DNA from: an uncultured Clostridia bacterium
Lineage (GTDB): Bacteria > Bacillota > Clostridia > Oscillospirales > QAMX01
DNA: 64,000 bases
Direction of reading: 5' to 3'
Assembly (NCBI GenBank): GCA_944376195.1
Contig: CALWBW010000003.1
Location: forward strand, 2,707-66,706
The notes under the pieces were generated by a model. That model was given only the letters and a program-made list of their open reading frames with translations, did no database searches and had not been told where the DNA came from. Made by a program: the position numbers and the translations under genes. Shown here one piece after another: positions 37,094-64,000 of this stretch (within the stretch, counting starts at the first letter, position 1; every line of letters starts with the position of its first letter).

Positions 37094-37151
37094 TTTTGCG
37101 CTAGACCGTACCCGGGGCTTTTGAAATTATTACGAAGCGAGGCGGTTGTTG

Positions 37152-39993: not shown

Positions 39994-40004
39994 GGAGTGG
40001 AACG

Positions 40005-47793: not shown

Positions 47794-48015
47794 ATGAAAA
47801 CGCTAAAAGACGTCCGGCATGGCCACACAGTACGTGTGGTTCGGGTACACGGCGAAGGCGCGATACGCCGCCATATCATGGATATGGGGATCACACGGGG
47901 TACGGAAATTACCGTGCGGAAGACCGCGCCTCTGGGCGACCCCATGGAATTGACACTGCGCGGCTATGAACTGTCGCTCCGCAAGGCGGACGCGGAAATG
48001 ATTGAAGTCGAGTAA
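47794..48015 (+). CDS. feoA: FeoA family protein
   Basis: 73 aa, ...RRHIMDMGITRGTEITVRKTAPLGDPMEL.... Confidence 0.92.
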   Translation: MKTLKDVRHGHTVRVVRVHGEGAIRRHIMDMGITRGTEITVRKTAPLGDPMELTLRGYELSLRKADAEMIEVE

Positions 48016-48032
48016 GCCGGGAGGAAAGCAGT

Positions 48033-50216
48033 ATGGCTTATAAAATTGCGTTAGCGGGCAATCCCAACAGCGGAAAGACCACGCTTTTTAATGTATTGAC
48101 CGGCTCCAACCAGTTTGTGGGCAACTGGCCGGGCGTGACGGTGGAGAAGAAAGAAGGGTATTTGAAATCCGACCATGAAGTGGTCGTGGTGGACTTGCCG
48201 GGGATTTATTCGCTCTCGCCCTACACATCGGAAGAAGTGGTGGCACGGCGTTTCCTGGTCGGGGAGCATCCGGACGCCATTCTCAATATTGTGGATGGTA
48301 CCAATTTGGAGCGCAATCTGTATCTGACGACACAGTTGACCGAACTGGGGATTCCGGTGGTAATCGCGGTCAATATGATGGACGTCGTAACGAAAAATGG
48401 GGACGTCATTCATATTCACAGGCTGTCGGACGAGCTGGGGTGCGAAGTGATGGAGATTTCCGCCCTGAAGGGCACGGGTATTGCGGAGGCAGCCCGGACG
48501 GCGGTGGAAAAGGCCAAGGCCCGGATGCATCCGGAACCGAAGCATAATTTCAGCGGCAGTGTGGAACATGCCATTGCGCATATTGAAGAGGCTATGGCCG
48601 GGCGATTGCCCAAGGGGCAGGAGCGCTGGTATGCGATCAAACTGTTTGAGCGCGACATGCGTGTAATTGAAGAACTGCAGCTGCCTGCGGAGCTTATCGC
48701 GCATATTGAAGAGGACATTCGCAGCTGTGAGCGGGAACTGGACGACGATGCGGAGAGCATTATTACAAACGAACGTTATAATTATATTACTGCCCTTATC
48801 CGGGAGTGTTATACGCGCAAAAACGCACCCGGAATGACGATTTCCGACAAGATCGATTATATTGTGACCAACCGCTGGCTGGCGCTTCCCATTTTTGCGG
48901 CGGTGATGTGCCTGACCTACTACATATCTGTGACGACGGTTGGCACTTGGGCAAACGACTGGGCTGCAAACGGCGTGTTTGGCGACGGTTGGACTTTTTT
49001 TGGACACTTTGTTCCGGGAATCCCCAGCGTGGTGGAAAACGCGCTGACGAACTGGGGCTGTGCGGACTGGCTGGTGCGTCTGGTTGTCGACGGAATTATC
49101 GGCGGCGTGGGGTCGGTCCTGGGGTTTATCCCGCAGCTTTTGGTGCTCTTCTTTTTCCTGGCGTTTCTGGAAGCGTGCGGGTACATGTCGCGGATTGCGT
49201 TTATCATGGACCGTATTTTCCGGAAATTCGGGCTTTCCGGTAAGTCGTTTATCCCCATGCTCATCGGCACGGGATGTAGTGTGCCGGGCATTATGGCATC
49301 GCGTACCATTGAAAGTGAACGCGACCGGAAAATGACGGTGATTACGACCAGTTTTATCCCGTGCAGCGCGAAACTGCCGGTAATTTCCCTGTTTGGCAGC
49401 GCCATTTTCGGCGGCGCGTGGTGGGTGGCGCCCAGCGCGTATTTTGCCGGAATTGTCGCGGTGCTCTGCTCCGGGATTTTGCTGAAAAAGTTCCGGATGT
49501 TCCGGGGTGAGGACGCGGCGTTTGTGATGGAGCTGCCTGCGTATCACTGGCCCACGCCGCGCAACCTCCTTCGTTCCATGTGGGAGCGGAGCTGGAGTTT
49601 TATCAAAAAAGCCGGAACGGTGATTTTGCTGTGTTCCATGCTGATTTGGTTCCTCTCGAATTTTGGCGTTGCAAACGGCCGCTTTGGTATGGTGACGGAT
49701 ATGGGCGACAGCCTGCTGGCTGCGTTTGGCAACTTGATCGCCTGGATTTTCCGTCCTCTGGGCTTTGACGAATGGTCCTGCGCCGTCGCGACGCTGACGG
49801 GTTTGGTGGCCAAGGAAAACGTTGTCTCCACATTTGGCGTTTTGTTTGGCGCGGGAGAGCTTTCAGAGAATGGTGCGGAGCTGTGGCAGCGCCTGTCTGA
49901 GATGTTTACGCCGTATTCCGCTTATGCTTTCCTGATATTCAACCTGTTGTGCTGCCCCTGTGTGGCGGCGGTCGGTGCGATCCGTCGGGAAATGCACAGT
50001 GCGAAGTGGACGCTGTTTGCGGTAAGCTACCAGACGGGGCTTGCGTACTGCGTGGCGCTGACGGTAAACCAGCTGGGCGCGCTGTTTGCCGGGCGGGGTT
50101 CCTGGCTTGGTACAGCGGCGGCCTGTTTGGTGATTGCGGGATTCCTGTATCTGCTTTTGCGCCGGAAAAAACCGGCCCCGGTGGCGGAGGAAAAACGGGA
50201 AGGCGCGGCGGTATAG
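48033..50216 (+). CDS. feoB: Ferrous iron transporter FeoB (paralogue 2)
   Basis: 727 aa, colinear and highly similar to 9022..11190 (GNPNSGKTTLFN, DLPGIYS, NMMD). Confidence 0.96.
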   Translation: MAYKIALAGNPNSGKTTLFNVLTGSNQFVGNWPGVTVEKKEGYLKSDHEVVVVDLPGIYSLSPYTSEEVVARRFLVGEHPDAILNIVDGTNLERNLYLTTQLTELGIPVVIAVNMMDVVTKNGDVIHIHRLSDELGCEVMEISALKGTGIAEAARTAVEKAKARMHPEPKHNFSGSVEHAIAHIEEAMAGRLPKGQERWYAIKLFERDMRVIEELQLPAELIAHIEEDIRSCERELDDDAESIITNERYNYITALIRECYTRKNAPGMTISDKIDYIVTNRWLALPIFAAVMCLTYYISVTTVGTWANDWAANGVFGDGWTFFGHFVPGIPSVVENALTNWGCADWLVRLVVDGIIGGVGSVLGFIPQLLVLFFFLAFLEACGYMSRIAFIMDRIFRKFGLSGKSFIPMLIGTGCSVPGIMASRTIESERDRKMTVITTSFIPCSAKLPVISLFGSAIFGGAWWVAPSAYFAGIVAVLCSGILLKKFRMFRGEDAAFVMELPAYHWPTPRNLLRSMWERSWSFIKKAGTVILLCSMLIWFLSNFGVANGRFGMVTDMGDSLLAAFGNLIAWIFRPLGFDEWSCAVATLTGLVAKENVVSTFGVLFGAGELSENGAELWQRLSEMFTPYSAYAFLIFNLLCCPCVAAVGAIRREMHSAKWTLFAVSYQTGLAYCVALTVNQLGALFAGRGSWLGTAAACLVIAGFLYLLLRRKKPAPVAEEKREGAAV

Positions 50217-50225
50217 GAGAAGGAA

Positions 50226-50411
50226 ATGCTTTCTTTTTTGATGGAAAACGCGGCGACGATGGTTGTCGCCGCCCTGGTGCTCGTGATTGCGGCGGCTGCT
50301 TTGGCGGCAGTCCTGCGGGCACGCAGGACCTGCGGGGCATGCGCGTTTTGTGCGCAGCGGAAGCACTGCGGGAAGATAGACGAAAATTGTAGCATGAAGG
50401 GACAGCGCTGA
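50226..50411 (+). CDS. FeoB-associated Cys-rich membrane protein (paralogue 2)
   Basis: 61 aa with a TM helix followed by CGACAFCAQRKHC...C. Confidence 0.75.
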   Translation: MLSFLMENAATMVVAALVLVIAAAALAAVLRARRTCGACAFCAQRKHCGKIDENCSMKGQR

Positions 50412-50551
50412 TTGTAGGATGCGTTTTTGCACAGCTGTTTTTGATCATAATGTGTCGTTTAAGCTGATCGAAGAGAGTGAGAATTATTGCTTGTCTATTA
50501 TGAGAGACATGAGAGCGGTTAAATCAAGTCGAATCAGGAAAGGATGTTTTT

Positions 50552-51025
50552 ATGAAAAGACTCAATAGGAAAAAAGTTCTATTTCTATGCATCCTGTTTG
50601 TGGTGATGGCAGGAGTTCTCGTTTGGTATGATCTCCCGATCAAAAGAACAGCAACCGCAGAATTGTATTGTGATGATCCAAAAGTGAGCGGGCTCAGTGC
50701 GGAATTGGATCTGTGCATATCCAGATCATTGTTTTCTCCGTCTGCGATCCATGGTACGATCCACATCGGAGACAGAGATTATGTGGTATGGGGAAGGCAG
50801 GAATATGATTTTGCCAGCAATATCCAGCGTAAAATAAAGGGCGAAATAGATATACCGGTCTTTATCAATGCGGACAATTTTGGCAAAGGAACGGATTTGC
50901 TGCTCCGTGATCTTCTCTATATACATAGTATTCAATTTGGAGATGACTATAAAATTGAAAATGTAAGCTTGTCGATGACCTCCGATGATTATGGCATGTG
51001 GAACAGCCGCGCAGTGATTTCATAA
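50552..51025 (+). CDS. Hypothetical membrane-anchored protein
   Basis: 157 aa. N-terminal TM/signal anchor KKVLFLCILFVVMAGVLVWY. RBS AGGAAAGGA. AT-rich gene with no recognisable domain. Confidence 0.5.
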   Translation: MKRLNRKKVLFLCILFVVMAGVLVWYDLPIKRTATAELYCDDPKVSGLSAELDLCISRSLFSPSAIHGTIHIGDRDYVVWGRQEYDFASNIQRKIKGEIDIPVFINADNFGKGTDLLLRDLLYIHSIQFGDDYKIENVSLSMTSDDYGMWNSRAVIS

Positions 51026-51444
51026 AACGAGAGGACCGTTGTTTTACGAACAGCAGCGTTCTGTTGCCGGAGCCGTTGGTTTTTATAAATTGATGTATAG
51101 AAAAGCGGAAGCAGAAGATAATCAGGATATTTGATGATTAAACGAGCGGAGGAAGGGACTGCGGCCTCCGGTTCCCTGCCTGTGTTCTTTGGAGCGAAAA
51201 AGGCGTGAATGTATGCCAGACCGTTCCCGATTAAAAGATATGCTCGCGCAGTACAAGCAGGGCGGTGTTTCAAAACAGAGGGGTAAAACAGAAACAGCAG
51301 GAGCGTTTGAAGCGGAAGGTCATATCGTGAAGTGTAAATTGTCCATATTAAAAAAACAGGAATCGCCACTATGTTTTTTATGACAAAGAAGACGGAAAAC
51401 ATCTGATTACAAAACAGTAAAGGATATTGAAGAAAACTTAAACT

Positions 51445-51489
51445 AAAAAAGAGCTAACTGACGAATCAAAATCAGTTAGCTCTCTTTTT
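51445..51489. terminator. Bidirectional terminator
   Basis: aaaaaa-gagctaactga-cgaatcaaaa-tcagttagctc-tcttttt. Confidence 0.75.
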
Positions 51490-51582
51490 ATGAATAATGA
51501 AAAAGTGTTGCCAAATCGTTGCCGCAAAGGGCCTTAACCCCTCAAAAACCCAGTAAAATCAGGCTTTTCCGGGTCTCCCGGA

Positions 51583-52563
51583 TCATTCCCACTCGATGGT
51601 TCCCGTGGGCTTCGGCGTTAAATCATAAAGCACCCGGTTGACGCCTTTCACTTCGCTGGTAATACGCGCGGTGATGTGTTGCAACAGTGCAAAGGGGATA
51701 TCCTCCACGGTGGCGGTCATGGCATCTTTGGTGTTCACGGCACGAATAATTACCGGCCATTCATCCGCGCGCTTATTGTCCCGTACACCCACGGATTTGA
51801 AATCAGGCACAATTGTGAAATACTGCCATACTTTCCCTTCCAGACCGTTTTTCGCAAACTCTTCGCGTAAAATGGCGTCCGACTCCCGTACTGCTTCCAG
51901 ACGGTCACGGGTGATCGCGCCCAGACAACGCACGCCCAAGCCGGGGCCGGGGAAAGGCTGACGGAAAACCATGCCGTCGGGTAAACCAAGCGTCTTGCCG
52001 ACAACGCGTACTTCATCCTTATATAAAAACTTCAACGGTTCTACCAATTCAAACTGGAGATCTTCCGGCAGTCCGCCGACATTGTGGTGCGCCTTAACAG
52101 GGCCGCTTTCCAAAATATCGGGATAAATCGTCCCCTGTGCCAGGAATTCGATTCCCTCCTGCTTCCGCGCTTCTTCCTCAAAAACCCGGATGAATTCCGC
52201 GCCGATAATTTTCCGTTTTTGCTCCGGATCCGCCACACCTGCGAGCTTATTGAGAAAACGATCCACGGCGTCTACGTAAACTAAATTGGCGTCCATTTCG
52301 TCCCGGAAGACTTTGATCACCTGTTCCGGCTCGCCCTTACGCAACAGTCCGTGATTGACGTGAACACAAACAAGCTGTTTCCCAATTGCCTTAATCAAGA
52401 GCGCGGCGACAACAGACGAATCCACACCGCCGGATAGCGCCAGGAGGACCTTCCGGCTCCCGACCTGCGCCTGAATTTCCGCTATCTGTTCTGTGATAAA
52501 AGCTTCCGCCTGTGCGGGAGTCTGAATCCGCGCAAGGCTCTCCGGACGTTTGTTATTTCCCAT
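51583..52563 (-). CDS. guaA: GMP synthase ATP-pyrophosphatase plus dimerisation domains only (no GATase domain)
   Basis: 326 aa with P-loop LSGGVDSSVVA, ...KIIGAEFIRVFEEEA..., HHNVGGLPE, FPGPGLGVR and C-terminal TIEWE. It has its own RBS GGAGGAA. The upstream 180 nt is non-coding. Confidence 0.88.
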   Translation of the reverse strand: MGNNKRPESLARIQTPAQAEAFITEQIAEIQAQVGSRKVLLALSGGVDSSVVAALLIKAIGKQLVCVHVNHGLLRKGEPEQVIKVFRDEMDANLVYVDAVDRFLNKLAGVADPEQKRKIIGAEFIRVFEEEARKQEGIEFLAQGTIYPDILESGPVKAHHNVGGLPEDLQFELVEPLKFLYKDEVRVVGKTLGLPDGMVFRQPFPGPGLGVRCLGAITRDRLEAVRESDAILREEFAKNGLEGKVWQYFTIVPDFKSVGVRDNKRADEWPVIIRAVNTKDAMTATVEDIPFALLQHITARITSEVKGVNRVLYDLTPKPTGTIEWE

Positions 52564-52743
52564 ATTTGTTCCTCCATCGTATCTCAGTTTCCCATATGCA
52601 GCAAGTGTCAGGAGAAAATTTTCTCCAATCTGAAAAGTAATGCAAATTTATTATACGCGAAATTCTATCCCATTGCAATTGGATTTTTGCTTTCCCTTCG
52701 GCCGGAGCCTGTTTCGTCCCTTCCTGAGCTCAAAATTATGATT

Positions 52744-54504
52744 TTACAAGGGTGGTTGGTGCTTTTCTAAAAATCCCACAAGATCCTCTTCCTGAATATC
52801 CACGGAATCTCCCGAGCCATCCTGCGCATAGAGACGGAAATATAGGGGGTCAGACTCCGGACTGTCGGCGCCAACCAATAGAGAAAATGGCCCATTTGTC
52901 TCATAAATCCGAATATACAGGCCGGAACCGGACTCTTCATAGAAATAGTGATCCAACGAGGACCAACGCAAGGCGCTTTTTTCCTGAGAAAGACGGAGGA
53001 TATCCTCTATCGTGAGAACCTGCGCCGGTTCCGTGGAATCGGGTGCGCTTTCCTGCGGAAGCAGAGTAGTTTCATAGAATACCGCACGCAAAACAATTAA
53101 ATACGCAGCTTCCGCCAAAAGGTCGGGATTTTCCTGCAGTGTCCTGGGAGTAAACGATTGCAGGATTCCTTCGCCCATATCAAAGGCCATGACGGCAAGC
53201 AGGCTGGAAGTGTCCGGCGTCACCGGAATCCGCTCTCCTTCCTGATAAGAAGAAAACGACCAACCGATTACCGATGCATTTTCCGGAAACGCAAAATATG
53301 TGAGCAATGAACCGCCGTATTGATCTGTTTCAACCTGAATTTCAACACCCGTAGAGACACCATCCGTAGTACGAAAGTTGACAAAACATTGGATTTCTTT
53401 TGCAAGAGAGGTCAGAGAGATGGGAGCGCTTCTGACACATTCTCCGTAGCTCCACTGTTCAACATAAAGTTCTCCACTGCCTACCCGGGTTCCTAATTCA
53501 ACCTCAAATTGCGCGGAAGGGGATCGGGCGGAATGAGAGACATTTATCAATCGCAGGTTATCATGAGGGGAAAGAGGAATGGTCAAAAAACAAACTGCCA
53601 GAATGAGACCAAGCAGCAGCGAGAGCGCCAGGATCCAACGCTTTGGTTTTTGATAAGAGAGGATTCGCTGAATGCGGGCTTTTACGTCAAGTTCCCCAAA
53701 GGCCAGAGGATAAAACGACGGCGACTTCGGGCGGATACTGCAATGAAACAGTGCCGTCGCATATGCACGGCGCTCGTCTTCGCCCAGTTCTTTCAGCACT
53801 TTTTCATCACAGGAACCCTCAATATCCCGGCAAAATACCAGATATGCAATCCATAAAAGCGGCTGGAACCAGTAAACGGAGAGTAGAAAGAACCCGATTA
53901 TTTTCCAAATGTGATCTTTCCTTCGAATGTGCGCACGCTCGTGGGATAAAACATAGGTAAGATCTTGATCGGGTATTTGATAGGGAAGATAAATTACAGG
54001 GTGAAATAATCCCAGAACAAAGGGCGAAACCGCCCATTCGCTCTGTTTCACCCGCGTTTGCAAAGGGATGGCAGTGGCGACACGGTGCTTTAAAACGAGA
54101 TAACTTCCTATTGCATAGAAGAACATTGCCAATATCCCTGCAACCCAAATATGGGACAAAACAAGCGACCAGACCTGTGCGGGGTTTACACTATCTCCAG
54201 GGTCCGGCGCCATGGAACTGGCTAAAAAGGGATTCACGGCATCGTCTAAAAGCGCTACGCCGGTTTCAATTTGAGGGGAATCTGTTTGCATGCTTTCTTG
54301 TAAAATGGGTTCGGCACTGGGAATTAAACTGAACGTACTTTCCAGGGAAATTGGGCAGATAAGGCGCAGGGCAACGAGCCCCCACAGCGCGCAACAAATC
54401 CATTTTGGCATGGTGCGAAGGAACAGGCGAATTATTAAGATTGCGAGAATCAGCCAGCCGGCAGTCAGGCCCAAATTGACGAGTTTGAAAAAAACAGCCT
54501 CCAT
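52744..54504 (-). CDS. BlaR1/MecR1-family (M56 peptidase) membrane sensor with non-PBP extracellular domain
   Basis: N-terminal TM helices, zinc motif HERAHIRRKDH, and a C-terminal ~280 aa lacking an SxxK penicillin-binding motif. It lies 4 nt downstream of the BlaI-like gene. Confidence 0.82.
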   Translation of the reverse strand: MEAVFFKLVNLGLTAGWLILAILIIRLFLRTMPKWICCALWGLVALRLICPISLESTFSLIPSAEPILQESMQTDSPQIETGVALLDDAVNPFLASSMAPDPGDSVNPAQVWSLVLSHIWVAGILAMFFYAIGSYLVLKHRVATAIPLQTRVKQSEWAVSPFVLGLFHPVIYLPYQIPDQDLTYVLSHERAHIRRKDHIWKIIGFFLLSVYWFQPLLWIAYLVFCRDIEGSCDEKVLKELGEDERRAYATALFHCSIRPKSPSFYPLAFGELDVKARIQRILSYQKPKRWILALSLLLGLILAVCFLTIPLSPHDNLRLINVSHSARSPSAQFEVELGTRVGSGELYVEQWSYGECVRSAPISLTSLAKEIQCFVNFRTTDGVSTGVEIQVETDQYGGSLLTYFAFPENASVIGWSFSSYQEGERIPVTPDTSSLLAVMAFDMGEGILQSFTPRTLQENPDLLAEAAYLIVLRAVFYETTLLPQESAPDSTEPAQVLTIEDILRLSQEKSALRWSSLDHYFYEESGSGLYIRIYETNGPFSLLVGADSPESDPLYFRLYAQDGSGDSVDIQEEDLVGFLEKHQPPL

Positions 54505-54508
54505 GCCT

Positions 54509-54868
54509 TTACTCCCCCTGCTTTTCTAAAATACGCTGAATTTCTGCAATTCCTGTATCAGATAATGCCTGCCTCCGTCCAAAGGCTGCAAGAAAAGCAG
54601 GTAACGATCCCTCAAATGTGTTTGTCATCAGCGCTTCCATTTCTGCGGCTTGCACGTCTTCTTTGCTGACGAGAGACGTGACGATCGTGTTTTCACTTTT
54701 CACGACGCCTCGATCCTTTAACCTTTTGATTACGGTATAAGTGGTAGTTTTACTCTATCCCAGTTCTTCGCGGCAAAGCTTCGCGAGCTTGGTGCTGTTA
54801 ATCGGTTCATGGCGCCAGAGAATGAGACAAAACCGGTATTCACTTTGAAAAATTTTTGGGGTTGACAT
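54509..54868 (-). pseudogene. BlaI/MecI/CopY-family repressor gene interrupted by an in-frame amber codon
   Basis: The reading frame is MSTPKIFQSEYRFCLILWRHEPINSTKLAKLCREELG-TAG-SKTTTYTVIKRLKDRGVVKSENTIV.... The TAG at 54757-54755 sits where the family has a conserved Trp (TGG). Confidence 0.75.
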
Positions 54869-54881
54869 GTTGCCTCCTTGT

Positions 54882-54938
54882 AAAGTCTAATGGATTAGAC
54901 CTTTTTTAAAGTCTAACGTATTAGAACAACTTTGTCAA
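54882..54938 (-). promoter_or_regulatory. Two operator dyads plus promoter of the BlaI/BlaR1-like operon
   Basis: aaaGTCTAATggATTAGAC (54882-54900) and aaaGTCTAAcgtATTAGAac (54908-54927). On the minus strand: TTGACA (54938-54933), 17 nt spacer, TAGACT (54915-54910). Confidence 0.55.
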
Positions 54939-55465
54939 GAATAATACGAAAAAAGATTTTTCCAAACATTCCGTTTTTCAGTAAACTGAACAGGAACTTA
55001 GTAAATGGCGAAAAATATTTACAAAACTGCCGGAATACCGACTTGCTTGAGTCCTATCGCAAAGAGCTGGAGGAAGGAGATATTTCCTCAATGTAGAACG
55101 GATTGTCAATATGGCGCTTTCGTTCTCCATGGGTTTCCTCATACCGGCATTTCTCAAAACAGCAAAACGTGGTCGAAGCAAAAAAATTATATATTTTAAG
55201 CAGACAGCCTGGCGACGGATGCCGCAAATCTATATTTCACGAAGAAAAAAGGGCATTTCACGAAAAAGAAATTTTTTATTCAAAATTTCCGATATAATCA
55301 CTGGGCAAGCAATAGGAGTGTAATGGATGCATAGGCGGACAGAATGGAAATAAATTGAACAGGAGTCCATGTATGGATTTCGTGGATCGTGAGAAATGAT
55401 CCGTGGTCTGGTTAATATCCAAAAAGAATCTGCCCGTACCATAAAGAAAGGAGGATTGGCGTTAA

Positions 55466-55939
55466 ATGGACATAGGAGAGATCATTTATAAGACCCTGAT
55501 AGACGGTGATTCTTATAAAACTTTGCTAAAAGGCCTGGGAATGACTTTACAGATTTCTCTGTTTTCCATTGTGATTGGAACTCTGCTGGGCATGGTTATT
55601 TGCGCCCTGCGAAGAAGCCGGTTACGGATCATTCGGGGCATCGCAGCAGGATACATTGCCGTGGTGAGGGGCAGCCCGGTAGTACTGCTTCTCATGCTGA
55701 TGTATTATGTGGTATTCGCAGGGAGCGGCGTGTCTGCATTGATGGTGGCTGTAGCGGCATTTTCTCTCCATATGAGTGCTTATACGGCAGCCTGTTTCTA
55801 TGGCAACGTACAGGGGTATGAATCGGAAAGAGAAGAACTTCTGATCACCGACGACTATTATACCGACAATGTTTTTTATGTAACCAAGGACTATGATATG
55901 GATAAGATTTTGGAGGCAATGGAGGAAAAACAAGGCTAA
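55466..55939 (+). pseudogene. Truncated/chimeric amino-acid ABC transporter permease (HisM/GlnP family N-terminal part)
   Basis: The first ~115 aa match the 3-TM amino-acid permease family (...IRGIAAGYIAVVRGSPVVLLLMLMYY...SLHMSAYTA...). The EAA-loop region and the C-terminal half are replaced by unrelated acidic sequence. No SBP or ATPase gene is adjacent. Confidence 0.55.
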
Positions 55940-55985
55940 GTTACAATAGAAGAGAATCATTCATAATTGCTTGGAGGATGAAAAT

Positions 55986-56282
55986 ATGAATATCAGCAAA
56001 ATGGTAAGTGGAACTGTACTGAATATTTCTCTGGAGGGTCGGCTGGATACAACAACTGCGCCGCAGCTGGAAGCGGAACTCAAGCAGTCTATGGAAGGAA
56101 TCACACAACTTGAATTGGACTTCGATAAGCTGGAATATTTGTCTTCTGCCGGACTGCGGGTCATCCTGGGCGCACAGAAGACGATGAACAAGCAAGGGAA
56201 AATGGTCGTTCGTCATGTCAACGAAACCATTATGGAAGTGTTTGAAGTGACCGGCTTCATCGATATTCTCACGATCGAATGA
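55986..56282 (+). CDS. STAS-domain anti-sigma-factor-antagonist-like protein (SpoIIAA/RsbV family)
   Basis: 98 aa with ...LDTTTAPQLEAEL...LDFDKLEYLSSAGLRVILGA.... RBS GGAGGA. Confidence 0.88.
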   Translation: MNISKMVSGTVLNISLEGRLDTTTAPQLEAELKQSMEGITQLELDFDKLEYLSSAGLRVILGAQKTMNKQGKMVVRHVNETIMEVFEVTGFIDILTIE

Positions 56283-57682
56283 AAGGGGAGATGAGGCAGG
56301 GTGTGAAAATGAGGCTGCTGGAGCAGGCGGCTCAAGCGGCAAAAAAGGAAGACCTGTTGAAAGATATTGTCGTTTTACATATCAACCACTGCGTGGAGAA
56401 CACGTTTTATTTTAACGACGTACTCAGAGGACTGTTCCGTCATGTAACTCTGCTGACACCGCCCTATAGCAATCAGGATATCCCTGAAAATTACACAGGA
56501 TCGTGCTATCACGGTATGCGGCGAAACGGCGTCTATTATCTGATGAAAAATGGGATCGAGACAGGCCGCCGCAGCACGGAATTTCTCGAGTCCACCATAC
56601 TTCTGCTGGAAGAAGCTTTTCGTGGGGAACTGATTCCCCTGCTGCGTCAGGGGAATCAGTTGCTGATTGTTGAGGATGGAGGATACCATTTTGAGGCGCT
56701 TCCTCGTATAAAGCAGTTGTTTCCGGAGGTGGAAGATCGTATTATTGGCGTAGTGGAACAGACGACTTCCGGAACCAGAAAAAGCATGAGCCGGCAGGGC
56801 TACCGGTATTCTTATCCATGCGCCAGTATTTCTCGATCGGATATTAAAATGCATGTAGAATCCATCTTTATCGGGCAACGAATTGTGGAAGAGCTCGGAC
56901 TGATGCTGTATGCGGCAGATGCTTTTTTCTCTTTCCATTCCGTATTGCTGCTTGGCTACGGAATCATAGGGCGCAGCTGCCGTATGGCTTTAACAGGGCG
57001 TTACTGCCGGCTGGAGGCCTATGATACGAATCCACGCATGTTGAAAGTCGCCGAGGATGACGGCCTGTGGGTTTATTCTCAACCGTCTCCAGAGATGTTT
57101 TCAGAAGACACAATTGTCATAGGCTGTGTGGGCGCGCCTTCTTTTGGCGAGGGCATGTTTTGTGCTTTCCTGGAAGGCCGGGGAACAAATCTTTATCTGG
57201 CCAGCGGCTCTTCAAAAGATGTGGAGTTTTCCTACTTTCTTCGGTATTTAAAGGGGGAAGAAGCAAACATTCCCTGCCTTGTGCTTGAAAAACAGGAGGC
57301 CGCCGAATGGTATGTCCGCTATGATTTTCGTTATGGCGGCATAGAAAAAAACGTGTATTTAATGGCGGAAGGGAAACCGGTGAATTTTTATCGAAAAGGC
57401 GTGATCAGTCTGACTTACCGCGTGATTGATCTGGTGTTTACGGAAATGCTTCAAATGGCGCTGTACTTATGCCGAAACCGGAATATCCCTCCTCAGCTTT
57501 ATATATTAGGAGAAGATAATCCAATCACAAGAGCTGTTTCCGAAAAAGAAATGCTCGATTTGTGGTTTCAGAAAAATCATTTTTGGTATCAGGGGGCGCT
57601 GGAATCTTTTTTACAGCCTCATCCCCTGGCTGGTGAACTGCGAAAGAACACATGGGAGAAGGATCATGGAGAAAATTATTAG
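56279..57682 (+). CDS. Divergent S-adenosyl-L-homocysteine-hydrolase-fold protein (function unknown)
   Basis: By-eye colinear matches to SAHH motifs: LLIVEDGGYH (DDGGD), VVEQTTSGTRK (EETTTG), LLGYGIIGRSCRMAL...RLEAYDTNP (GYGDVGKGCA...EIDP), VIGCVGAPS, LASGSSKDVEF (NIGHFDxEI), YLMAEGKPVNF (LLAEGRLVNL). The ATGA overlaps the STAS stop. Confidence 0.6.
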   Translation: MKGEMRQGVKMRLLEQAAQAAKKEDLLKDIVVLHINHCVENTFYFNDVLRGLFRHVTLLTPPYSNQDIPENYTGSCYHGMRRNGVYYLMKNGIETGRRSTEFLESTILLLEEAFRGELIPLLRQGNQLLIVEDGGYHFEALPRIKQLFPEVEDRIIGVVEQTTSGTRKSMSRQGYRYSYPCASISRSDIKMHVESIFIGQRIVEELGLMLYAADAFFSFHSVLLLGYGIIGRSCRMALTGRYCRLEAYDTNPRMLKVAEDDGLWVYSQPSPEMFSEDTIVIGCVGAPSFGEGMFCAFLEGRGTNLYLASGSSKDVEFSYFLRYLKGEEANIPCLVLEKQEAAEWYVRYDFRYGGIEKNVYLMAEGKPVNFYRKGVISLTYRVIDLVFTEMLQMALYLCRNRNIPPQLYILGEDNPITRAVSEKEMLDLWFQKNHFWYQGALESFLQPHPLAGELRKNTWEKDHGENY

Positions 57683-59435
57683 GCGGACATTTTTCAAATT
57701 TTTCGGCCCTACCCTGATAGCGTCATTGGCGTTGGCCATCGTCTCCATGACCGATTTGATTGTAGCAGGCCAGCTTTTGGGCAGCAGTGCGTTTACCGCT
57801 ATCAGTCTGGCATTGCCGGTGACAATTTTTGTGCAAATCATTGCGATGATTTTCGGCAGCGGCGCCGGAATTGTACTATCTAATTATTTGGGCCAGGGTC
57901 AGAGAGACCGCTGCAATCAGGTGTTTACCACCGCGCTGCTTTCGGCATTGGCCATAGGCGTCGCAGCAGCGGTGGGAGGTCAGCTTTTTTTAGATCAGTT
58001 ACTGCTGCTTTTGGGTGCGCAGCCCGGCGAAAGCATGCATTATGCTCGCCAGTATATTGGTGTTTTGCTGCTTGGTATGCCCTTTTTGATTTTGGCGCCG
58101 GTGCAGTTTACTTTTTTGCGCAATGACAGTCATCCCCGCTACACAATGTTTTGCGTATTGGCAAGCGGTATATGGAACCTGATCGCAAACATTTTGCTTG
58201 TACTTCTGTTTGATCTGGGACTTGCGGGTATTGCAATTGGCACCGTCACTTCCCAAATACTTGCTTGCGTGCTTTCCGGCCTGAAACTTTATCAAAAAAA
58301 CGGCAGTTTTCATCTGATAAAGGCTGGCTGGTCTTTTTCTGCCGTTCAGGAGATGGTAAAACCCGGTTTGCCGGCCGCTATGATTTTCTTTTTTCAGGTA
58401 GTGCTCACACTGGTAATCAATCATACTCTGGCTATGACCGGCGGTGATCGTGCGGTGGCCGTATACGCCGTGGTAAAGTACTTGATAACGTTTTTCTATG
58501 CCTTGTACGATGGTGTGACTGGTTCCATTCAGCCGATGCTGGGTATCTACCAGGGCGAAGGAGAAATTGATAATTTGCGCCGCACGGTTTCTGTATCTTT
58601 TAAAATGACGTTGCTGATTGCGGTGGGACTCACTTTCGTTATGGAAGTGGGAGCGCCGGTAATCAGTTTGATTTTTGGCGTGGAATCCGATATGCTGGAT
58701 ATCACTGTAACGGCTATTCGTATTCAGGCATTATTCTGCATTACAGCCGGAATACTGGCTTTTCTGGGCGCTTTTTATCGATGCACCGGCCATTCGGGAG
58801 TGTCCATGATCATTGCCGTGTGCAATAATTTGATTTTCCCAGTGTCTATCATTCTGCTGCTGGCAAATTTTACGTCTCTTGGCAGCAATAGTGTTTATTG
58901 GGGGCTGGTTCTTACCGATTACGCCACTTTTCTGGTGTTGTTTGGCGTTGTGTGGATACTGCGTAAACCGCAGGAATCCCGATTGCTCCTGCTCCCTGTT
59001 AAGGATACTCAGAGCAATGGACAGACATATCAAGTGCTGATCCAGGATAAATACGAAAATATTCCCCAGATTTCCACAGAAATCGATCGCTTTTGCGAGG
59101 ATCGTGGCGTCAGTTTCAAAAAACGATATTATATTTCTCTTTGTATGGAAGAGCTTGTCGTCAATGTGATTCAAATGGGATTTCATAAAGAGCATGATAA
59201 CTATATTGACATCCGGGTATCAGTATTGGAAAACGGGCAAGTGGCCCTGCGCATTCGGGACGACGCGGTGGAGTTTGATCCGACCCAATCCCAGGAGGTT
59301 TCCCCGGGAGAGCTGTTGGATGGTTCCCATCAGGAGGAGCATAACGAATTGGGCCTGCTCCTGGTGAAGAAAGTAGCCAGTTCTTATTCTTACAAGCGCA
59401 CGGTGGGATTTAATAATTTTATGGTAGTGCTTTAG
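57666..59435 (+). CDS. MATE-family transporter fused to a C-terminal RsbW/SpoIIAB-like GHKL (HATPase_c) domain
   Basis: About 450 aa of 12-TM MatE-like sequence, then the N-box EELVVNVIQMG, ...IRDDAVEFDP... and ELGLLLVKK. ATG 57666 overlaps the previous gene by 17 nt. Confidence 0.75.
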   Translation: MEKIIRRTFFKFFGPTLIASLALAIVSMTDLIVAGQLLGSSAFTAISLALPVTIFVQIIAMIFGSGAGIVLSNYLGQGQRDRCNQVFTTALLSALAIGVAAAVGGQLFLDQLLLLLGAQPGESMHYARQYIGVLLLGMPFLILAPVQFTFLRNDSHPRYTMFCVLASGIWNLIANILLVLLFDLGLAGIAIGTVTSQILACVLSGLKLYQKNGSFHLIKAGWSFSAVQEMVKPGLPAAMIFFFQVVLTLVINHTLAMTGGDRAVAVYAVVKYLITFFYALYDGVTGSIQPMLGIYQGEGEIDNLRRTVSVSFKMTLLIAVGLTFVMEVGAPVISLIFGVESDMLDITVTAIRIQALFCITAGILAFLGAFYRCTGHSGVSMIIAVCNNLIFPVSIILLLANFTSLGSNSVYWGLVLTDYATFLVLFGVVWILRKPQESRLLLLPVKDTQSNGQTYQVLIQDKYENIPQISTEIDRFCEDRGVSFKKRYYISLCMEELVVNVIQMGFHKEHDNYIDIRVSVLENGQVALRIRDDAVEFDPTQSQEVSPGELLDGSHQEEHNELGLLLVKKVASSYSYKRTVGFNNFMVVL

Positions 59436-59452
59436 TATGTCTGCCGGAAAGG

Positions 59453-61834
59453 ATGGAAAATATGAGGGAAATTTTTACTGTTTTCCGTAAGAAGAGCGCA
59501 TGGGGGCATATGGTGTTAAGCGCTGTGGTGTTCTTTGCCATAGCATTGCCCTTTCGCAGCTTGTTCACCCTTTTGCCGGGGGTGACGGAGATCCGTCCTG
59601 CCAATATGGTGCCGCTGGTATTTGGAATTCAGTTTGGCCCAGCCGCCGCCTGGGGTATTTCCATAGGGAATCTGATTTCCGATATTCTGTCAGGTTCTCA
59701 TGTATTTGTTTGCGCCACGGGGTTTGTGGTAAACTTTTTTTATACCTATATTCCATACAAACTGTGGTACACGCTGCGTCTGGGCAAAGAACCCATCCAC
59801 CCAATCCGCCTCAATACGGTACAAGAGATCGTAAAATATATTTTGGTGGTTTTAATTGACTCTTTTGTTACCACCGTGTCTTTGTCCCTGATTTTCGAGG
59901 CTGCGGGATTCCAGTCGTTTTCTTCTTCTTTTCCGCTGTTGTTTTTCAACAATTTCGATTTCGCGATCATTCTGGGCATTCCGGTGCTCTCCTTCTGGAA
60001 TAAGACGCGTCTGCGCTCGGAAATACCGGAATACCGGAAAAATCCAGGGACCCGACGCAGTGTTCGCTGGTTGGATTTGCCGCTTGTTATCATTGCCGTT
60101 ACTGGTGTGGGGTATTTTTTCTATTCCCTGCTTCAAGGAGGAATGATAAACAGCTCCCTTGCACTGGGGGTTCTCTGCATCGCGATCGCAAGTCTGATCG
60201 TTTACGCGTTTCGTCCTTCCGACAAAGTGGAGCCTCTGCCCCCCAGCCGGGAAGGCGTCAAGATTTCTATTAAGGCGAAGGTAACCATCGGTTTTCTGCT
60301 GCTGACCTTGGTATTCCTGATTTTGTTGGCAGTCGTGTCTTATAATGCGCTTCAAGTGGGCGGAGAACTTGAGCGGCTGGAGGTTTGGAACTATATTTAT
60401 CTGGTGCTGGGAATTACCATCAACCTGCTTTACGGTATTGCCATTCTGTTTTTGTGGTATGTAGAGCGGAATATTACCACCCCTGTGGAGCGTCTTTCTT
60501 ACCTGACGGAGCTATATGCCAGACAAGAACATGAACATGACGCAAGTCTTGCATCGCGTTTGCAGAAACTTGCTGACGCGATTCCAAAAGGAGATGAAAT
60601 TGGCGCTTTGGCGCTTTCCTTCCGGAACATGATGGATGAGCTGGACGACTATATGGCAAACTTGGCGGTGGTCACCGCAGATAAGGAACGCATTGCCACA
60701 GAACTCAATGTCGCCACGCAAATTCAGGCCTCTATGTTGCCCTGTATTTTCCCGGCATTCCCCGGCCGCAAGGAGTTTGACGTCTATGCGACTATGACCC
60801 CGGCCAAGGAAGTGGGCGGAGATTTTTATGATTTCTTCCTGATAGACGACGATCACCTGGCGCTGGTGATTGCAGATGTTTCAGGGAAAGGGGTACCGGC
60901 GGCATTATTCATGGTGATTGCCAAAACTTTGCTGAAAAATGCTGCGCAAACGGGTCTTTCACCGAAAGCGATACTGGAGAAGGTGAATAATCAGCTCTGT
61001 GAAAATAACGAAGCGGAAATGTTTGTCACCGTGTGGCTGGGGATTTTTGAAATTTCCACTGGGAAACTGATTGCGGCCAATGCCGGCCACGAGTACCCGG
61101 CAGTCAGACATCAAGGCGGGAAATTTGAGCTTTACAAGGATAAGCACGATTTTGTGTTGGCTGGCATGGAAGGCGCTCGCTATCGGGAATATGAGATGAT
61201 TTTAAAACCCGGCGATACCCTGTTTGTCTACACAGACGGTGTGGCGGAAGCCACTGACGCCACCAACACGCTGTATGGAACGGATAGGATGCTAACTGCA
61301 CTCAACCGGAACGAGAAGGCTGACCCCGAGAAACTTCTCCAAAGCGTGAAGGAGGATATTGATATGTTTGTGGGCGAAGCGCCGCAGTTTGACGATATCA
61401 CCATGCTGGCATTTAAAATCAAGGATTTTCAACTGGAAGGTATGAAAAAAATAAGCGTTTCTCCGCAGCTTGCCAGTATTGATACCGTCACGGACTTTTT
61501 TGAAACCTGCCTGACGGAGCAGAATGCGCCTGTAAAAGTAGTGTCCCAAATCAATATTGCAGTGGACGAGATTTTTTCCAATATTGTGCGGTATAGTGGC
61601 GCGACATCTGTTTCAATAGGATGCCGGGCAGAAAAGGACCACGTTGTGCTCCGCTTTGCGGATAACGGGAGACCTTATGACCCGACGGAAAAGGATGACC
61701 CGGATATCACGCTTTCGGCTGAGGAACGGGACATTGGCGGGCTTGGCATCTTTATGGTTAAAAAAACAATGGATGACATTTCATATGTGTATGCTGATGG
61801 CTTTAACATTCTGACTATCCAAAAACGATGGTAA
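59453..61834 (+). CDS. Membrane QueT/ECF-S-like domain, HAMP-like linker, PP2C phosphatase and RsbW-like GHKL domain in one protein
   Basis: N-terminus: ...TEIRPANMVPLVFGIQFGPAAAWGISIGNLISD...YIPYKLWY. PP2C: VGGDFYDF, IADVSGKGVPAALFM, VYTDGVAEA, DDITMLAF. GHKL: DEIFSNIVRY, ADNGRPYDP, GGLGIFMVKK. An alternative start is ATG 59462. Confidence 0.8.
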   Translation: MENMREIFTVFRKKSAWGHMVLSAVVFFAIALPFRSLFTLLPGVTEIRPANMVPLVFGIQFGPAAAWGISIGNLISDILSGSHVFVCATGFVVNFFYTYIPYKLWYTLRLGKEPIHPIRLNTVQEIVKYILVVLIDSFVTTVSLSLIFEAAGFQSFSSSFPLLFFNNFDFAIILGIPVLSFWNKTRLRSEIPEYRKNPGTRRSVRWLDLPLVIIAVTGVGYFFYSLLQGGMINSSLALGVLCIAIASLIVYAFRPSDKVEPLPPSREGVKISIKAKVTIGFLLLTLVFLILLAVVSYNALQVGGELERLEVWNYIYLVLGITINLLYGIAILFLWYVERNITTPVERLSYLTELYARQEHEHDASLASRLQKLADAIPKGDEIGALALSFRNMMDELDDYMANLAVVTADKERIATELNVATQIQASMLPCIFPAFPGRKEFDVYATMTPAKEVGGDFYDFFLIDDDHLALVIADVSGKGVPAALFMVIAKTLLKNAAQTGLSPKAILEKVNNQLCENNEAEMFVTVWLGIFEISTGKLIAANAGHEYPAVRHQGGKFELYKDKHDFVLAGMEGARYREYEMILKPGDTLFVYTDGVAEATDATNTLYGTDRMLTALNRNEKADPEKLLQSVKEDIDMFVGEAPQFDDITMLAFKIKDFQLEGMKKISVSPQLASIDTVTDFFETCLTEQNAPVKVVSQINIAVDEIFSNIVRYSGATSVSIGCRAEKDHVVLRFADNGRPYDPTEKDDPDITLSAEERDIGGLGIFMVKKTMDDISYVYADGFNILTIQKRW

Positions 61835-61854
61835 TACGGAAAAAGAAGGAACGT

Positions 61855-63531
61855 ATGGATATGCGAAGCAGAAAATTTTACCGATTCGGCGCATGCTTTC
61901 TTGTATTGCTTCTTTTGTTGTCCGGCCTGGCGGGCTGCAGGACAGAACAACAAGGGGAAAATGTTGTAATTCTTTATACAAACGATGTCCACTGTGCGGT
62001 AGATAGCTATATCGGGTATGCCGGACTTGCAGCATATAAGGCGTGGATGCAGGAGAGCACTCCCTATGTGACGCTGGTAGACTGCGGGGATGCTCTGCAG
62101 GGGGATATTATTGGCACCATATCCCAGGGCGAGTATTTGATAGATATTATGAACCAGATCGGATATGACTTTGCTGTGCTGGGAAATCATGAGTTTGATT
62201 ACGGCATGAAGCAACTTCAAACCCTGCTGGAAGAGGCGGAGACACAATATTTGGGCTGTAATATCCGGTATACAGGTACTGGTTTGAATGCTGTTTCGTC
62301 CCTCAAGCCTTATGAGCTTGTCTCATATGGGGAGATAATGGTGGCTTTTGTAGGAGTCTCTACCCCGGAAAGCATTGCCCAGTCTACGCCTGCATATTTT
62401 ATGGACGAGTCCGGTGACCTGGTCTATGATTTTTACGGAGACAGCGGAGAGACGCTGTATATGCAGGTTCAGGAAACGGTGGACGCGTGCCGTGAGGAAG
62501 GCGCAGACTATGTCGTTGTGTTGGCGCATTTGGGAGACGACGAGAATTTTGCTCCTTTTCGTTCTATCGATTTAATTGCCGCTACTACCGGCATTGACGT
62601 AGTGTTGGATGGCCATTCTCACAGTGTGATACCTTGTGATATTGTAAACAATAAAAACGGAGAAAAGGTGCTGCTGTCTTCAACCGGCACGGGACTTATG
62701 AATATTGGACAGCTGGTGATTACGGCCGATGGAAATCTTACCGCCGGGCTCATCAGTGATTTTCCGGATGTTGATGAGGAAACCGATATCTTTGTAAAGG
62801 AGATACAGAGCCAATACGAGACGGAAATGAATCGAACGATAGCCTATACCGATGTGCAGCTTACTACCAAGTCGGAGTCTGCCATCCGTTTAGTCCGAAA
62901 CCGCGAGACCAATTTGGGTGATTTGTGCGCCGACGCGTATCGGGCGGTTTCCGGGGCGGATATTGCCTTTGTCAACGGCGGCGGCATTCGTGCCGATATA
63001 GAAGCGGGGGATATTTCCTATGGAGAGATCATCGCCGTCCAGCCATACGGCAACACGCTTTGCGTTGTCGAGGCAACAGGCCAGGAAATTTTGGACGCAC
63101 TGGAAATAGCCAGCCGGTCAACGATGGCAGAAATGAGCGACGGTGAAAATGCTGTTGGCGAAAACGGCGGTTTTTTACAGGTGTCGGGGCTTAAATACAC
63201 AATTGACACTTCCATTCCTTCCACAGTTGAAATGGATAATGCAGGAATGTTTGTATCTTTGGGAGAAAACCGGCGAGTCAAAGACGTACAGGTGTTGCAG
63301 GCGGATGAAAGTTATGTACCAATCGATCCGGCGAAGACTTATACGCTGGCTTCCCACAATTATCTGTTGAAACAGGGCGGCGACGGTTTGAATTTATTTA
63401 CGGACAACGTATTGACTATAAATGAGGGTATGCTGGATTACCAGGTGCTTATCACCTACATTACCGACTATCTCGGCGGTACGATAGGTAGTGATTATGC
63501 CCAGCCTCAGGGCCGGATCACAGTTGAATAG
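61855..63531 (+). CDS. Bifunctional metallophosphatase/5'-nucleotidase lipoprotein (UshA-like)
   Basis: Lipobox LLLLSGLAGC. Metallophosphoesterase motifs NDVHC, DCGDALQG, GNHEFD, and a 5'-nucleotidase C-terminal domain. Confidence 0.85.
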   Translation: MDMRSRKFYRFGACFLVLLLLLSGLAGCRTEQQGENVVILYTNDVHCAVDSYIGYAGLAAYKAWMQESTPYVTLVDCGDALQGDIIGTISQGEYLIDIMNQIGYDFAVLGNHEFDYGMKQLQTLLEEAETQYLGCNIRYTGTGLNAVSSLKPYELVSYGEIMVAFVGVSTPESIAQSTPAYFMDESGDLVYDFYGDSGETLYMQVQETVDACREEGADYVVVLAHLGDDENFAPFRSIDLIAATTGIDVVLDGHSHSVIPCDIVNNKNGEKVLLSSTGTGLMNIGQLVITADGNLTAGLISDFPDVDEETDIFVKEIQSQYETEMNRTIAYTDVQLTTKSESAIRLVRNRETNLGDLCADAYRAVSGADIAFVNGGGIRADIEAGDISYGEIIAVQPYGNTLCVVEATGQEILDALEIASRSTMAEMSDGENAVGENGGFLQVSGLKYTIDTSIPSTVEMDNAGMFVSLGENRRVKDVQVLQADESYVPIDPAKTYTLASHNYLLKQGGDGLNLFTDNVLTINEGMLDYQVLITYITDYLGGTIGSDYAQPQGRITVE

Positions 63532-63966
63532 GCAGGGTCTGGCCTGCTAAAAATTAACAGCGGAATACAATCCCTCAGATTGTGGTTTCCGGGCTGATAT
63601 GCTATAATATGTCGTATCTGAAATGGGCCCGTATTTGACTGTTTTGTTCTGGCGGTAATATTTTCGAGTTTGATATTTTCTTTTCGCGGCGCCCATAGCG
63701 CATCTATGTATCGGAACATCAGGGAGACTGGTGAGCGAAAGGGTTAAGTTTCCGTCGGCAGCCGGCCTGCGGAAAGAGGTTTTTTGATTTATTGAATCCG
63801 AATAAAACAATGATTTAAATGAAGGGTGGCAACGGGTCGTTTTTTGACGGACAGGCGGCGACATCGGAGGCCAGGAAGACACTGCGCGTTGTGCTTATGG
63901 CGATCAAAGCAACCACGAAGGTATTCGCGTTATGGCTGGGAAATAGGGAGGGTGAGGTGAAACGGT

Positions 63967-64000
63967 ATGCTGCGTATTGGAATATGCGACGATAATCAGG
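63967..64000 (+). CDS. Possible response-regulator gene start (runs off the window)
   Basis: ATG after GGGAGGGTGAGG. MLRIGICDDNQ resembles the N-terminus of LytTR/OmpR-type receivers. Only 11 codons are visible. Confidence 0.3.
   Translation, partial: MLRIGICDDNQ

Follow-up and report, generated by a model that had tools for sequence, protein, structure and literature searches.

A QueT-like S-component module joined to a PP2C phosphatase and an RsbW-type kinase, the predicted sensor of a conserved phospho-switch cassette in Clostridia

In the window analysed here, a 64,000-nucleotide stretch of one contig from an uncultured gut Clostridia bacterium, the open reading frame (ORF) at 59453..61834 (+) encodes a protein of 793 amino acids (aa) in which an S-component-like membrane module of the energy-coupling factor (ECF) type, a PP2C phosphatase domain and an RsbW-like kinase domain follow one another in a single chain. 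Judged from sequence and gene order, this gene is the sensor of a conserved five-part phospho-switch cassette made up of a STAS protein, a protein like S-adenosylhomocysteine hydrolase (SAHH), a MATE exporter with an RsbW-like tail, the QueT-PP2C sensor and the kinase. The initial annotation of this DNA had described the same combination of membrane module, phosphatase and kinase in one polypeptide, and all of these domain assignments hold by Pfam, fold and motifs. The Pfam matches were QueT at aa 23–182 (E 1.3e-7; 32.4 bits against a cut-off of 33.7), HAMP at aa 339–398 (weak, 18.9 bits against 25), SpoIIE/PP2C (PF07228) at aa 465–656 (E 4.9e-50, model positions 1–191 of 192) and HATPase_c_2 (PF13581) at aa 670–791 (E 3.9e-18). 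The sensor module scored 37.4 bits against Pfam QueT in a six-frame search of the genome.

The annotation had likened the first ~190 residues to queuosine-precursor/ECF S-components, and comparisons of the N-terminal region with the QueT and ECF-S families bear this out both by profile (phmmer, hhalign) and by fold (VIA-align). The N-terminal module is an S-component by homology and fold. A phmmer search with aa 1–200 against shorter proteins retrieved about 195 free-standing proteins, most of them 250–285 aa long (E 1e-29 to 1e-20, 34–41% identity), which carry the source names 'QueT transporter family' or 'ECF substrate-specific component'. They align across all of aa 1–255, so the ancestral unit was already an eight-helix one. 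A profile of this long family matched canonical QueT from the genome's relatives by hhalign (probability 80%, E 1.3e-5, 158 columns); the conserved columns of the two families coincide, and the residues in them often differ (E46/Q, N51/E, N73/C and D77/N). The AlphaFold2 (AF2) model of aa 1–345 had a pLDDT of 85, and the top 11 VIA-align rows for it were all solved ECF S-components, with Z 10.1–14.0 and covering aa 7–194. The best was 4hzu_S (Z 14.0, root-mean-square deviation 2.9, 161/164 residues); ThiT (12.3), FolT (12.2), BioY (12.1) and RibU (11.7) were among the others, then PanT and NikM/CbiM. Foldseek E-values were weak (0.3), with RibU and ThiT as the top meaningful rows, and a protein atlas placed the membrane module beside QueT clusters. 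With QueT (PF06177), RibU, ThiT, FolT and BioY the module shares the six-helix fold (Z 10–14), a homologous arginine in the L1 loop and conserved positions in helices 2–3. The genome also encodes a canonical QueT, on another contig (157 bits).

The lineage of the module includes working ECF S-components, since in locus L183 (related loci are designated by L numbers) a free-standing relative directly follows the genes for a fused EcfA-A' ATPase (two ABC_tran domains) and EcfT (CbiQ). Helix 1 of the free-standing proteins carries a double small-xxx-small motif (A[AG]xxAA; 23/28 and 22/28 proteins). The AxxxA motif docks an S-component on EcfT, and mutating either alanine abolishes transport by ThiT; in S-component-fold receptors it is replaced by bulky hydrophobic or aromatic residues, and this signature has been used to tell S-component transporters from such receptors (PMC11109136). 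We found an AxxxA-type motif in helix 1 of 23 of the 28 free-standing relatives and in 0 of 21 fused sensors. In the sensors, position 25 is valine in 18/21, and all 21 have phenylalanine or some other bulky residue at position 28; V25 and F28 stand in place of AxxxA in the window protein. By these alignments, the receptor-type replacement of AxxxA recurs in a different S-component lineage, and because the motif is lost in all 21 sensors the module is most likely a receptor and not a transporter: it would most likely bind a small molecule at the outer face of the membrane without transporting it.

Among sensors of 46–88% overall identity, the intramembrane polar residues N73, D77 and N166/N167 and the L1-loop motif TE[IV]RPAN are invariant, and most of these residues also occur in the free-standing proteins. 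Such conservation fits a retained binding pocket. The small-molecule input proposed in the initial annotation gains support from the invariant pocket-type residues and the loss of AxxxA, while the input itself is inferred. A nucleobase or nucleoside is at best a weak guess for the ligand, the slight clues being the QueT ancestry, the SAHH-like partner, the coupled 5'-nucleotidase (in the window and L101) and a PNP_UDP_1 fusion in L185. The last is an 807-aa protein (L185:6125-8548, minus strand) with a QueT-like N-terminus (E 1.7e-10) and a C-terminal PNP_UDP_1 nucleoside phosphorylase; the same-strand gene run around it also encodes two dCache-PP2C proteins, and to one of these a HATPase_c_2 domain is fused as well.

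The initial annotation had placed further membrane helices and a HAMP-like linker after the S-component part, and both are present, the former as four more transmembrane (TM) helices and the latter as a segment with a weak Pfam score. Ten TM helices, with both termini intracellular, emerge from hydropathy and two AF2 models: six in the S-component core, two at aa 209–253 and a hairpin at aa 273–336. Helices 7–8 are common to the sensor and the long free-standing QueT-like proteins; the hairpin TM9–10 occurs only in fused sensors. The outside loop of the hairpin has only about 6–12 residues, and neither hydropathy nor AF2 gave any extracytoplasmic domain in the 793-aa protein, so any outside signal must be read inside the membrane module. 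In the full-length AF2 model TM10 runs unbroken into a helix at 308–356, and helices at 364–375 and 382–427 then lead into the PP2C fold. HAMP is a precomputed assignment in several homologues, the AF2 helices are consistent with it, and linker residues T408–Q425 are invariant among homologues. A general mechanism has been proposed for sensor-linker-PPM proteins, HAMP-PPM examples included, in which a coiled-coil linker controls the phosphatase dimer via switch helices (PMC12143880).

The catalytic domains are intact in their motifs. The PP2C motifs GGDFYD, ADVSGKG, YTDG and QFDD and the metal-binding residues D457, D475, D595 and D647/D648 are invariant in 24 homologues. Aligned to RsbW (6m36), the kinase domain has the N-box (E..N), G1 (DxG) and G2 (GGLG) all in place, and these three are kept in 8/8 cassette kinases compared; the GHKL-type domain named in the initial annotation therefore possesses its ATP-binding elements. 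The presumed substrate of both enzymes is the STAS protein, with Ser59 as acceptor: in numbering from the TTG start (the ATG at 55986 could serve instead), this residue aligns to Ser58 of SpoIIAA (1auz) and Ser56 of RsbV (6m36_B). A STAS protein with an acceptor serine, a PP2C and a kinase in one locus make up a partner-switching set. The claim that the protein sets the phosphorylation of an adjacent STAS protein is thus upheld as to the acceptor serine and the phosphatase and kinase motifs, but not as to adjacency: the STAS gene is the first of the same tight operon, 3.2 kb upstream of the sensor gene.

The kinase is a separate ORF of 135–152 aa in five cassette loci (L104, L105, L111, L112 and L117). 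In L104, L105 and L117 the QueT-PP2C stop and the kinase start overlap, the junction in L105 being tcATGA, with the PP2C stop lying over the kinase ATG; the kinase ORF lies 29 nucleotides (nt) after the QueT-PP2C gene in L111 and 75 nt after it in L112. In the window and in L101 the two ORFs have become one, in which Met664 is what is left of the earlier kinase start codon. The same fused form occurs in independent assemblies with 77–99% identity, which rules out an assembly error. To explain the fused state, a maximum-likelihood tree of 24 QueT-PP2C proteins requires four changes, at least three of them imposed by well-supported branches; as reconstructed here, the kinase fusion is recent and recurrent. 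The two opposing activities that the initial annotation had seen in one chain are accordingly better described as a lineage-specific fusion of two neighbouring genes, and since this fusion is recent and recurrent, the single-chain form is an evolutionary convenience, not a new logic. More widely, a HATPase_c_2 segment directly follows PP2C, in the same chain or in an adjoining ORF, in 57/80 related loci, and single proteins with both domains exist among the homologues. One locus (L124:5107-5850) has an RsbW-like kinase fused to STAS instead.

The five window genes from STAS to 5'-nucleotidase overlap or lie at most 17 nt apart, the SAHH-like gene overlapping the STAS stop (ATGA). Searching metagenome contigs with the SAHH-like protein recovered the cassette, with the order STAS, SAHH-like, MATE-HATPase_c_2, QueT-PP2C and kinase kept in L101, L104, L105, L111, L112, L114 and L117–119. 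The linkage holds down to 37% identity of the SAHH-like protein, and shorter contigs are consistent with it. The SAHH-like gene was found in 0 of 80 loci around PP2C relatives with other N-termini; a MATE-HATPase_c_2 fusion is present in about ten of those loci and a STAS gene in 50. Rfam gave no riboswitch near the sensor gene or near the genome's canonical QueT, and the promoter and terminator scan gave signal at background level.

The SAHH-like (AhcY-like) protein keeps EDGGY, EQTTSG, K..E and GYGxxGR, with the NAD and ribose-site motifs retained, and the histidine of GHF is replaced. In three homologues (P0348, P0356 and P0362) the SAHH-like domain is the C-terminal part of Hanks-type Ser/Thr kinases of 750–785 aa, and these fusions suggest that it acts as a sensor domain. 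The exporter, for which a GTG at 57633 is an alternative start, ends in an RsbW-like tail that keeps the N-box E..N; its G1 box reads DDA or DNL, with no glycine, in 7/7 cassette orthologues, as against DxG in 8/8 kinases. More distant MATE tails lose the N-box asparagine as well. Lacking the G1 glycine, and with that asparagine lost in distant tails, the tail is probably a binding module and not a kinase. The 5'-nucleotidase gene overlaps the stop of the sensor gene and has the same position in L101; it adjoins other PP2C loci in L014, L048 and L086, is not conserved in distant cassettes, and is possibly an accessory member of the operon.

Taken with these observations, the following scheme is in our view fairly probable: a receptor derived from an S-component steers the PP2C domain via hairpin, HAMP and linker, the fused kinase opposes it on the STAS serine, and unphosphorylated STAS is the effector. 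The 793-aa protein would then be a membrane sensor that sets STAS phosphorylation in a partner-switching cassette without a sigma factor. A small molecule would be bound at the outer face by the S-component-derived module, with no transport, and the state of occupancy would be signalled to the PP2C domain by way of the TM9–10 hairpin, the HAMP segment and the long helical linker. The RsbW-type kinase would phosphorylate the STAS serine and the PP2C domain oppose it, their balance thereby determining how much STAS is unphosphorylated, in the way that SypE acts on SypA. Unphosphorylated STAS might bind a partner, the best candidate being the MATE tail without the G1 glycine and the next the SAHH-like protein, which could be a cytoplasmic co-sensor of the nucleoside/NAD type or a second client. 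This output step is the least certain part. A fuller circuit independent of transcription, in which the receptor senses an extracellular nucleobase or nucleoside, the STAS state switches the MATE exporter via its tail and the SAHH-like protein adds a nucleoside/NAD input, is offered tentatively and is rather doubtful as a whole.

Several observations weigh against this scheme. The Pfam QueT score of the protein is slightly below the cut-off, and BLASTP detected no similarity between the sensor module and the genome's own canonical QueT, so that the link is made by profiles and fold only; the module is therefore a deep paralogue, and for that reason its ligand may be something other than a queuosine precursor. 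Because the 21 fused sensors are related to one another, few evolutionary events lie behind the AxxxA contrast, and 5/28 free-standing proteins are also without the motif. Cassette MATE tails keep the N-box asparagine and may therefore still bind ATP. Some QueT-PP2C-kinase proteins have other partners (STAS and a STAS-APH fusion in L184, STAS only in L015), so the link to MATE and SAHH is not obligatory. The full-length AF2 model has a pTM of 0.47, and we drew nothing from it on domain packing. What we infer is everything functional here, including ligand binding, which way the regulation runs and what the output is.

Of the alternatives, the one that survives best, though we regard it as unlikely, makes the membrane module only an anchor or dimerisation scaffold, with the PP2C domain taking its input from a cytoplasmic partner, either the SAHH-like protein, as a sensor of a nucleoside or NAD(H), or the MATE tail in an RsbT-like role. 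RsbT, itself a HATPase_c_2 protein, activates the PP2C RsbU by binding its linker (PMC12143880), and the cassette has two HATPase_c_2 modules. The fusion of SAHH-like domains to Hanks kinases, in the manner of sensor domains, points the same way, as do PP2C-kinase cores that are 65–72% identical to the window protein and carry quite different N-termini. A mere anchor would not be expected, however, to conserve intramembrane polar residues and TE[IV]RPAN so strongly, and the HAMP segment and continuous TM10 helix suggest signalling across the membrane.

The protein might also act as a conventional RsbU-RsbW-type input, directed at an alternative sigma factor whose gene lies elsewhere in the genome. 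Its kinase domain is a full RsbW/SpoIIAB homologue, and the genome has 12 sigma-70-family matches. None of the 12 lies on the assembled 79.7 kb of this contig, however, and no sigma factor turned up by tblastn and Pfam among the conserved cassette genes and the flanking ORFs examined in related loci, where no sigma-specific search was made. The only sigma gene beside STAS and HATPase_c_2 kinase genes belongs, on another contig, to a spoIIA-type operon with a STAS and a kinase of its own, and the cassette looks horizontally acquired. We consider such a sigma-factor output quite improbable.

Least probable of all is a true transceptor that still docks on a shared ECF module and imports a QueT-type substrate while the phosphatase reports transport: EcfT is present in the genome, the module's relatives are genuine ECF-linked S-components and several S-components are known to use one ECF module in common (PMC7755397), but every one of the 21 sensors has bulky residues in place of AxxxA, the four extra TM helices and the dimeric HAMP and linker should hinder the toppling needed for transport (PMC4820897), and a canonical QueT is already there.

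Table 1. Parts of the sensor protein and the neighbouring operon genes, in window coordinates.
Feature	Position	Strand	Basis
Six-helix QueT-like ECF S-component core, aa 7–194	59471..60034	+	Pfam, phmmer, hhalign, AF2, VIA-align
TM helices 7–8, aa 198–253	60044..60211	+	Hydropathy, AF2 helices 209–227 and 234–251, alignment
TM hairpin 9–10, aa 273–336	60269..60460	+	Hydropathy, AF2
HAMP-like segment and long helical linker into PP2C, aa 337–440	60461..60772	+	Pfam (weak), AF2
PP2C/SpoIIE-type Ser phosphatase domain, aa 441–656	60773..61420	+	Pfam, invariant motifs
Fusion junction	61421..61444	+	ATG 61442–61444 (Met664), retained start of the formerly separate kinase gene
RsbW/SpoIIAB-type Ser kinase domain, aa 665–793, plus stop codon	61445..61834	+	Pfam, RsbW alignment
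STAS protein of anti-sigma-antagonist type, 103 aa from TTG 55971	55971..56282	+	Pfam STAS E 2.4e-13, TIGR00377 E 4.7e-20
SAHH (AhcY)-like NAD-Rossmann protein, 467 aa	56279..57682	+	Family profile vs PDB SAHHs E 6e-13
MATE exporter (12 TM) with C-terminal RsbW-like HATPase_c_2 tail	57666..59435	+	Pfam MatE 1e-33, HATPase_c_2 7e-14
Lipoprotein-type 5'-nucleotidase	61828..63531	+	Pfam 5_nucleotid_C 2e-40 and Metallophos

Searches of 60 genomes from the same genus, family and order gave no match to the sensor module, and three congeneric genomes (80–93% complete) gave none to the SAHH-like gene. Across 399 sampled genomes of the class, the sensor module has a match in ten other than this one, and only two of these matches are long fused forms. 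GC content falls from 54–58% to 46–48% over the last 12 kb of the window. This fall, with the patchy occurrence, suggests that the cassette is an accessory and probably transferred element. Besides the cassette, the low-GC segment (within about 48000–64000) holds a BlaR1-type M56 protease and gene remnants. Among the organisms known by name to carry homologues are Blautia schinkii, Qiania dongpingensis, Allofournierella and Oscillospiraceae. A profile search of a library of 1.84 billion proteins, with PP2C columns still in the profile, gave a list mostly of PP2C proteins; about 25 of its top 150 clusters at 50% identity were full QueT-PP2C proteins.

The surroundings of the cassette vary. Directly upstream of it in two close relatives, L101 (2125-6618) and L102 (3508-8004), stand a class-III aminotransferase, a second MATE-HATPase_c_2 fusion and an unassigned 454-aa protein; the trio is missing in the window, where a truncated ABC permease remnant (55466–55939) takes its place. 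The 454-aa gene upstream of STAS in L101 was considered as a second SAHH-like copy and proved not to be one. A downstream LytTR response regulator was rejected as a cassette member, being syntenic only in close relatives. In one distant cassette a GGDEF diguanylate cyclase lies directly upstream of STAS (L111:4039-5262), which recalls SiaABCD. The STAS-APH fusion of L184 (3920-5263) joins STAS to an APH-type phosphotransferase and adjoins the gene for a 726-aa QueT-PP2C-kinase protein.

A second STAS cluster lies on the same contig about 7–10 kb past the 3' end of the window (L090:9572-13064). It comprises STAS, an Ldh/Mdh-like dehydrogenase, a glyoxalase-like protein and a soluble 256-aa SpoIIE PP2C, then CstA; it has no kinase, and its STAS gene is followed at once by one for an NAD-Rossmann enzyme, as in the main cassette. 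Within the window, 37146–41429 encodes an [FeFe]-hydrogenase-like protein (Fe-S, PAS), a soluble SpoIIE PP2C (38821–39993) and a second Fe-only hydrogenase; the run looks like a sensory-hydrogenase/phosphatase arrangement unrelated to the sensor cassette. A further gene (L090:4275-7700) encodes a 1141-aa chain of three SBP_bac_3 repeats, an ABC permease and an ABC ATPase, and a similar 916-aa fusion occurs in L185.

In general terms, S-component-fold receptors, PPM fusions, kinase-phosphatase fusions and sigma-less partner switching are already published. Closest in logic is SypE-SypA of Vibrio fischeri, in which an RsbW-like kinase and a PP2C in one chain set the phosphorylation of a single-domain STAS protein that is itself the downstream effector, with no sigma factor (PMC10120452). 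SypE differs in being soluble, in its order of kinase, REC and phosphatase and in its phosphorelay input; the window protein has the order sensor, HAMP, phosphatase and kinase and a membrane input resembling an S-component. Rv1364c of Mycobacterium tuberculosis also has a PP2C followed by an anti-sigma-type kinase domain in the same chain (PMC12143880), but it has a PAS sensor, includes the STAS domain in that chain and is soluble. The RsbU-RsbV-RsbW-SigB, SpoIIE-SpoIIAA-SpoIIAB-SigF and SiaABCD systems draw on the same PP2C, STAS and HATPase_c_2 kinase families, and SiaA (HAMP-PP2C) is the best NCBIfam match of the window protein (70 bits, far below the cut-off). In contrast to these systems, the conserved cassette has no sigma factor and no diguanylate cyclase, with the MATE protein with its RsbW-like tail and the SAHH-like protein instead.

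For the membrane module, the nearest parallel is given by the 5TMR (LytS-YhcK type) receptors such as BtsS/YpdA, which use the S-component fold as a receptor, have bulky residues in place of AxxxA, and have been noted in fusions with PPM/SpoIIE phosphatases, mainly in archaea (PMC11109136). The window protein gave no Pfam match to 5TMR_LYT (PF07694) at E <= 0.1. By VIA-align its first TM helix aligns to helix H1 of the S-components, with no extra N-terminal helix H0. Compared with the 5TMR receptors, its module belongs to a QueT lineage that is detectable by sequence and has ECF-linked free-standing relatives (QueT is unmentioned in PMC11109136), and it has four extra C-terminal TM helices and a HAMP segment. 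Compared with QueT and other S-components, it has different residues at conserved positions, has lost AxxxA and is fused to signalling domains; this, too, means that its substrate need not be a queuosine precursor. Our literature searches yielded nothing on a receptor of the QueT lineage, on an S-component with PP2C, on MatE with HATPase_c_2 or on the cassette.

S-component-fold receptors were recognised only in 2024, via structure prediction of 5TMR kinases (Partipilo & Slotboom 2024). The sensors described here and their homologous ECF-linked S-components, which differ in the docking motif, form a natural pair for the question of how a transporter subunit becomes a receptor. With carriers among common Clostridia of gut and rumen, including Blautia, Qiania, Allofournierella and Oscillospiraceae, the cassette is a case in which sigma-less partner switching can be tested, with an efflux pump as the candidate direct target and the SAHH-like protein as a second candidate sensor. 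If the transcription-independent circuit is true, partner switching would have been repurposed to gate a transporter, and an ECF S-component would have been recruited as a receptor a second, independent time.

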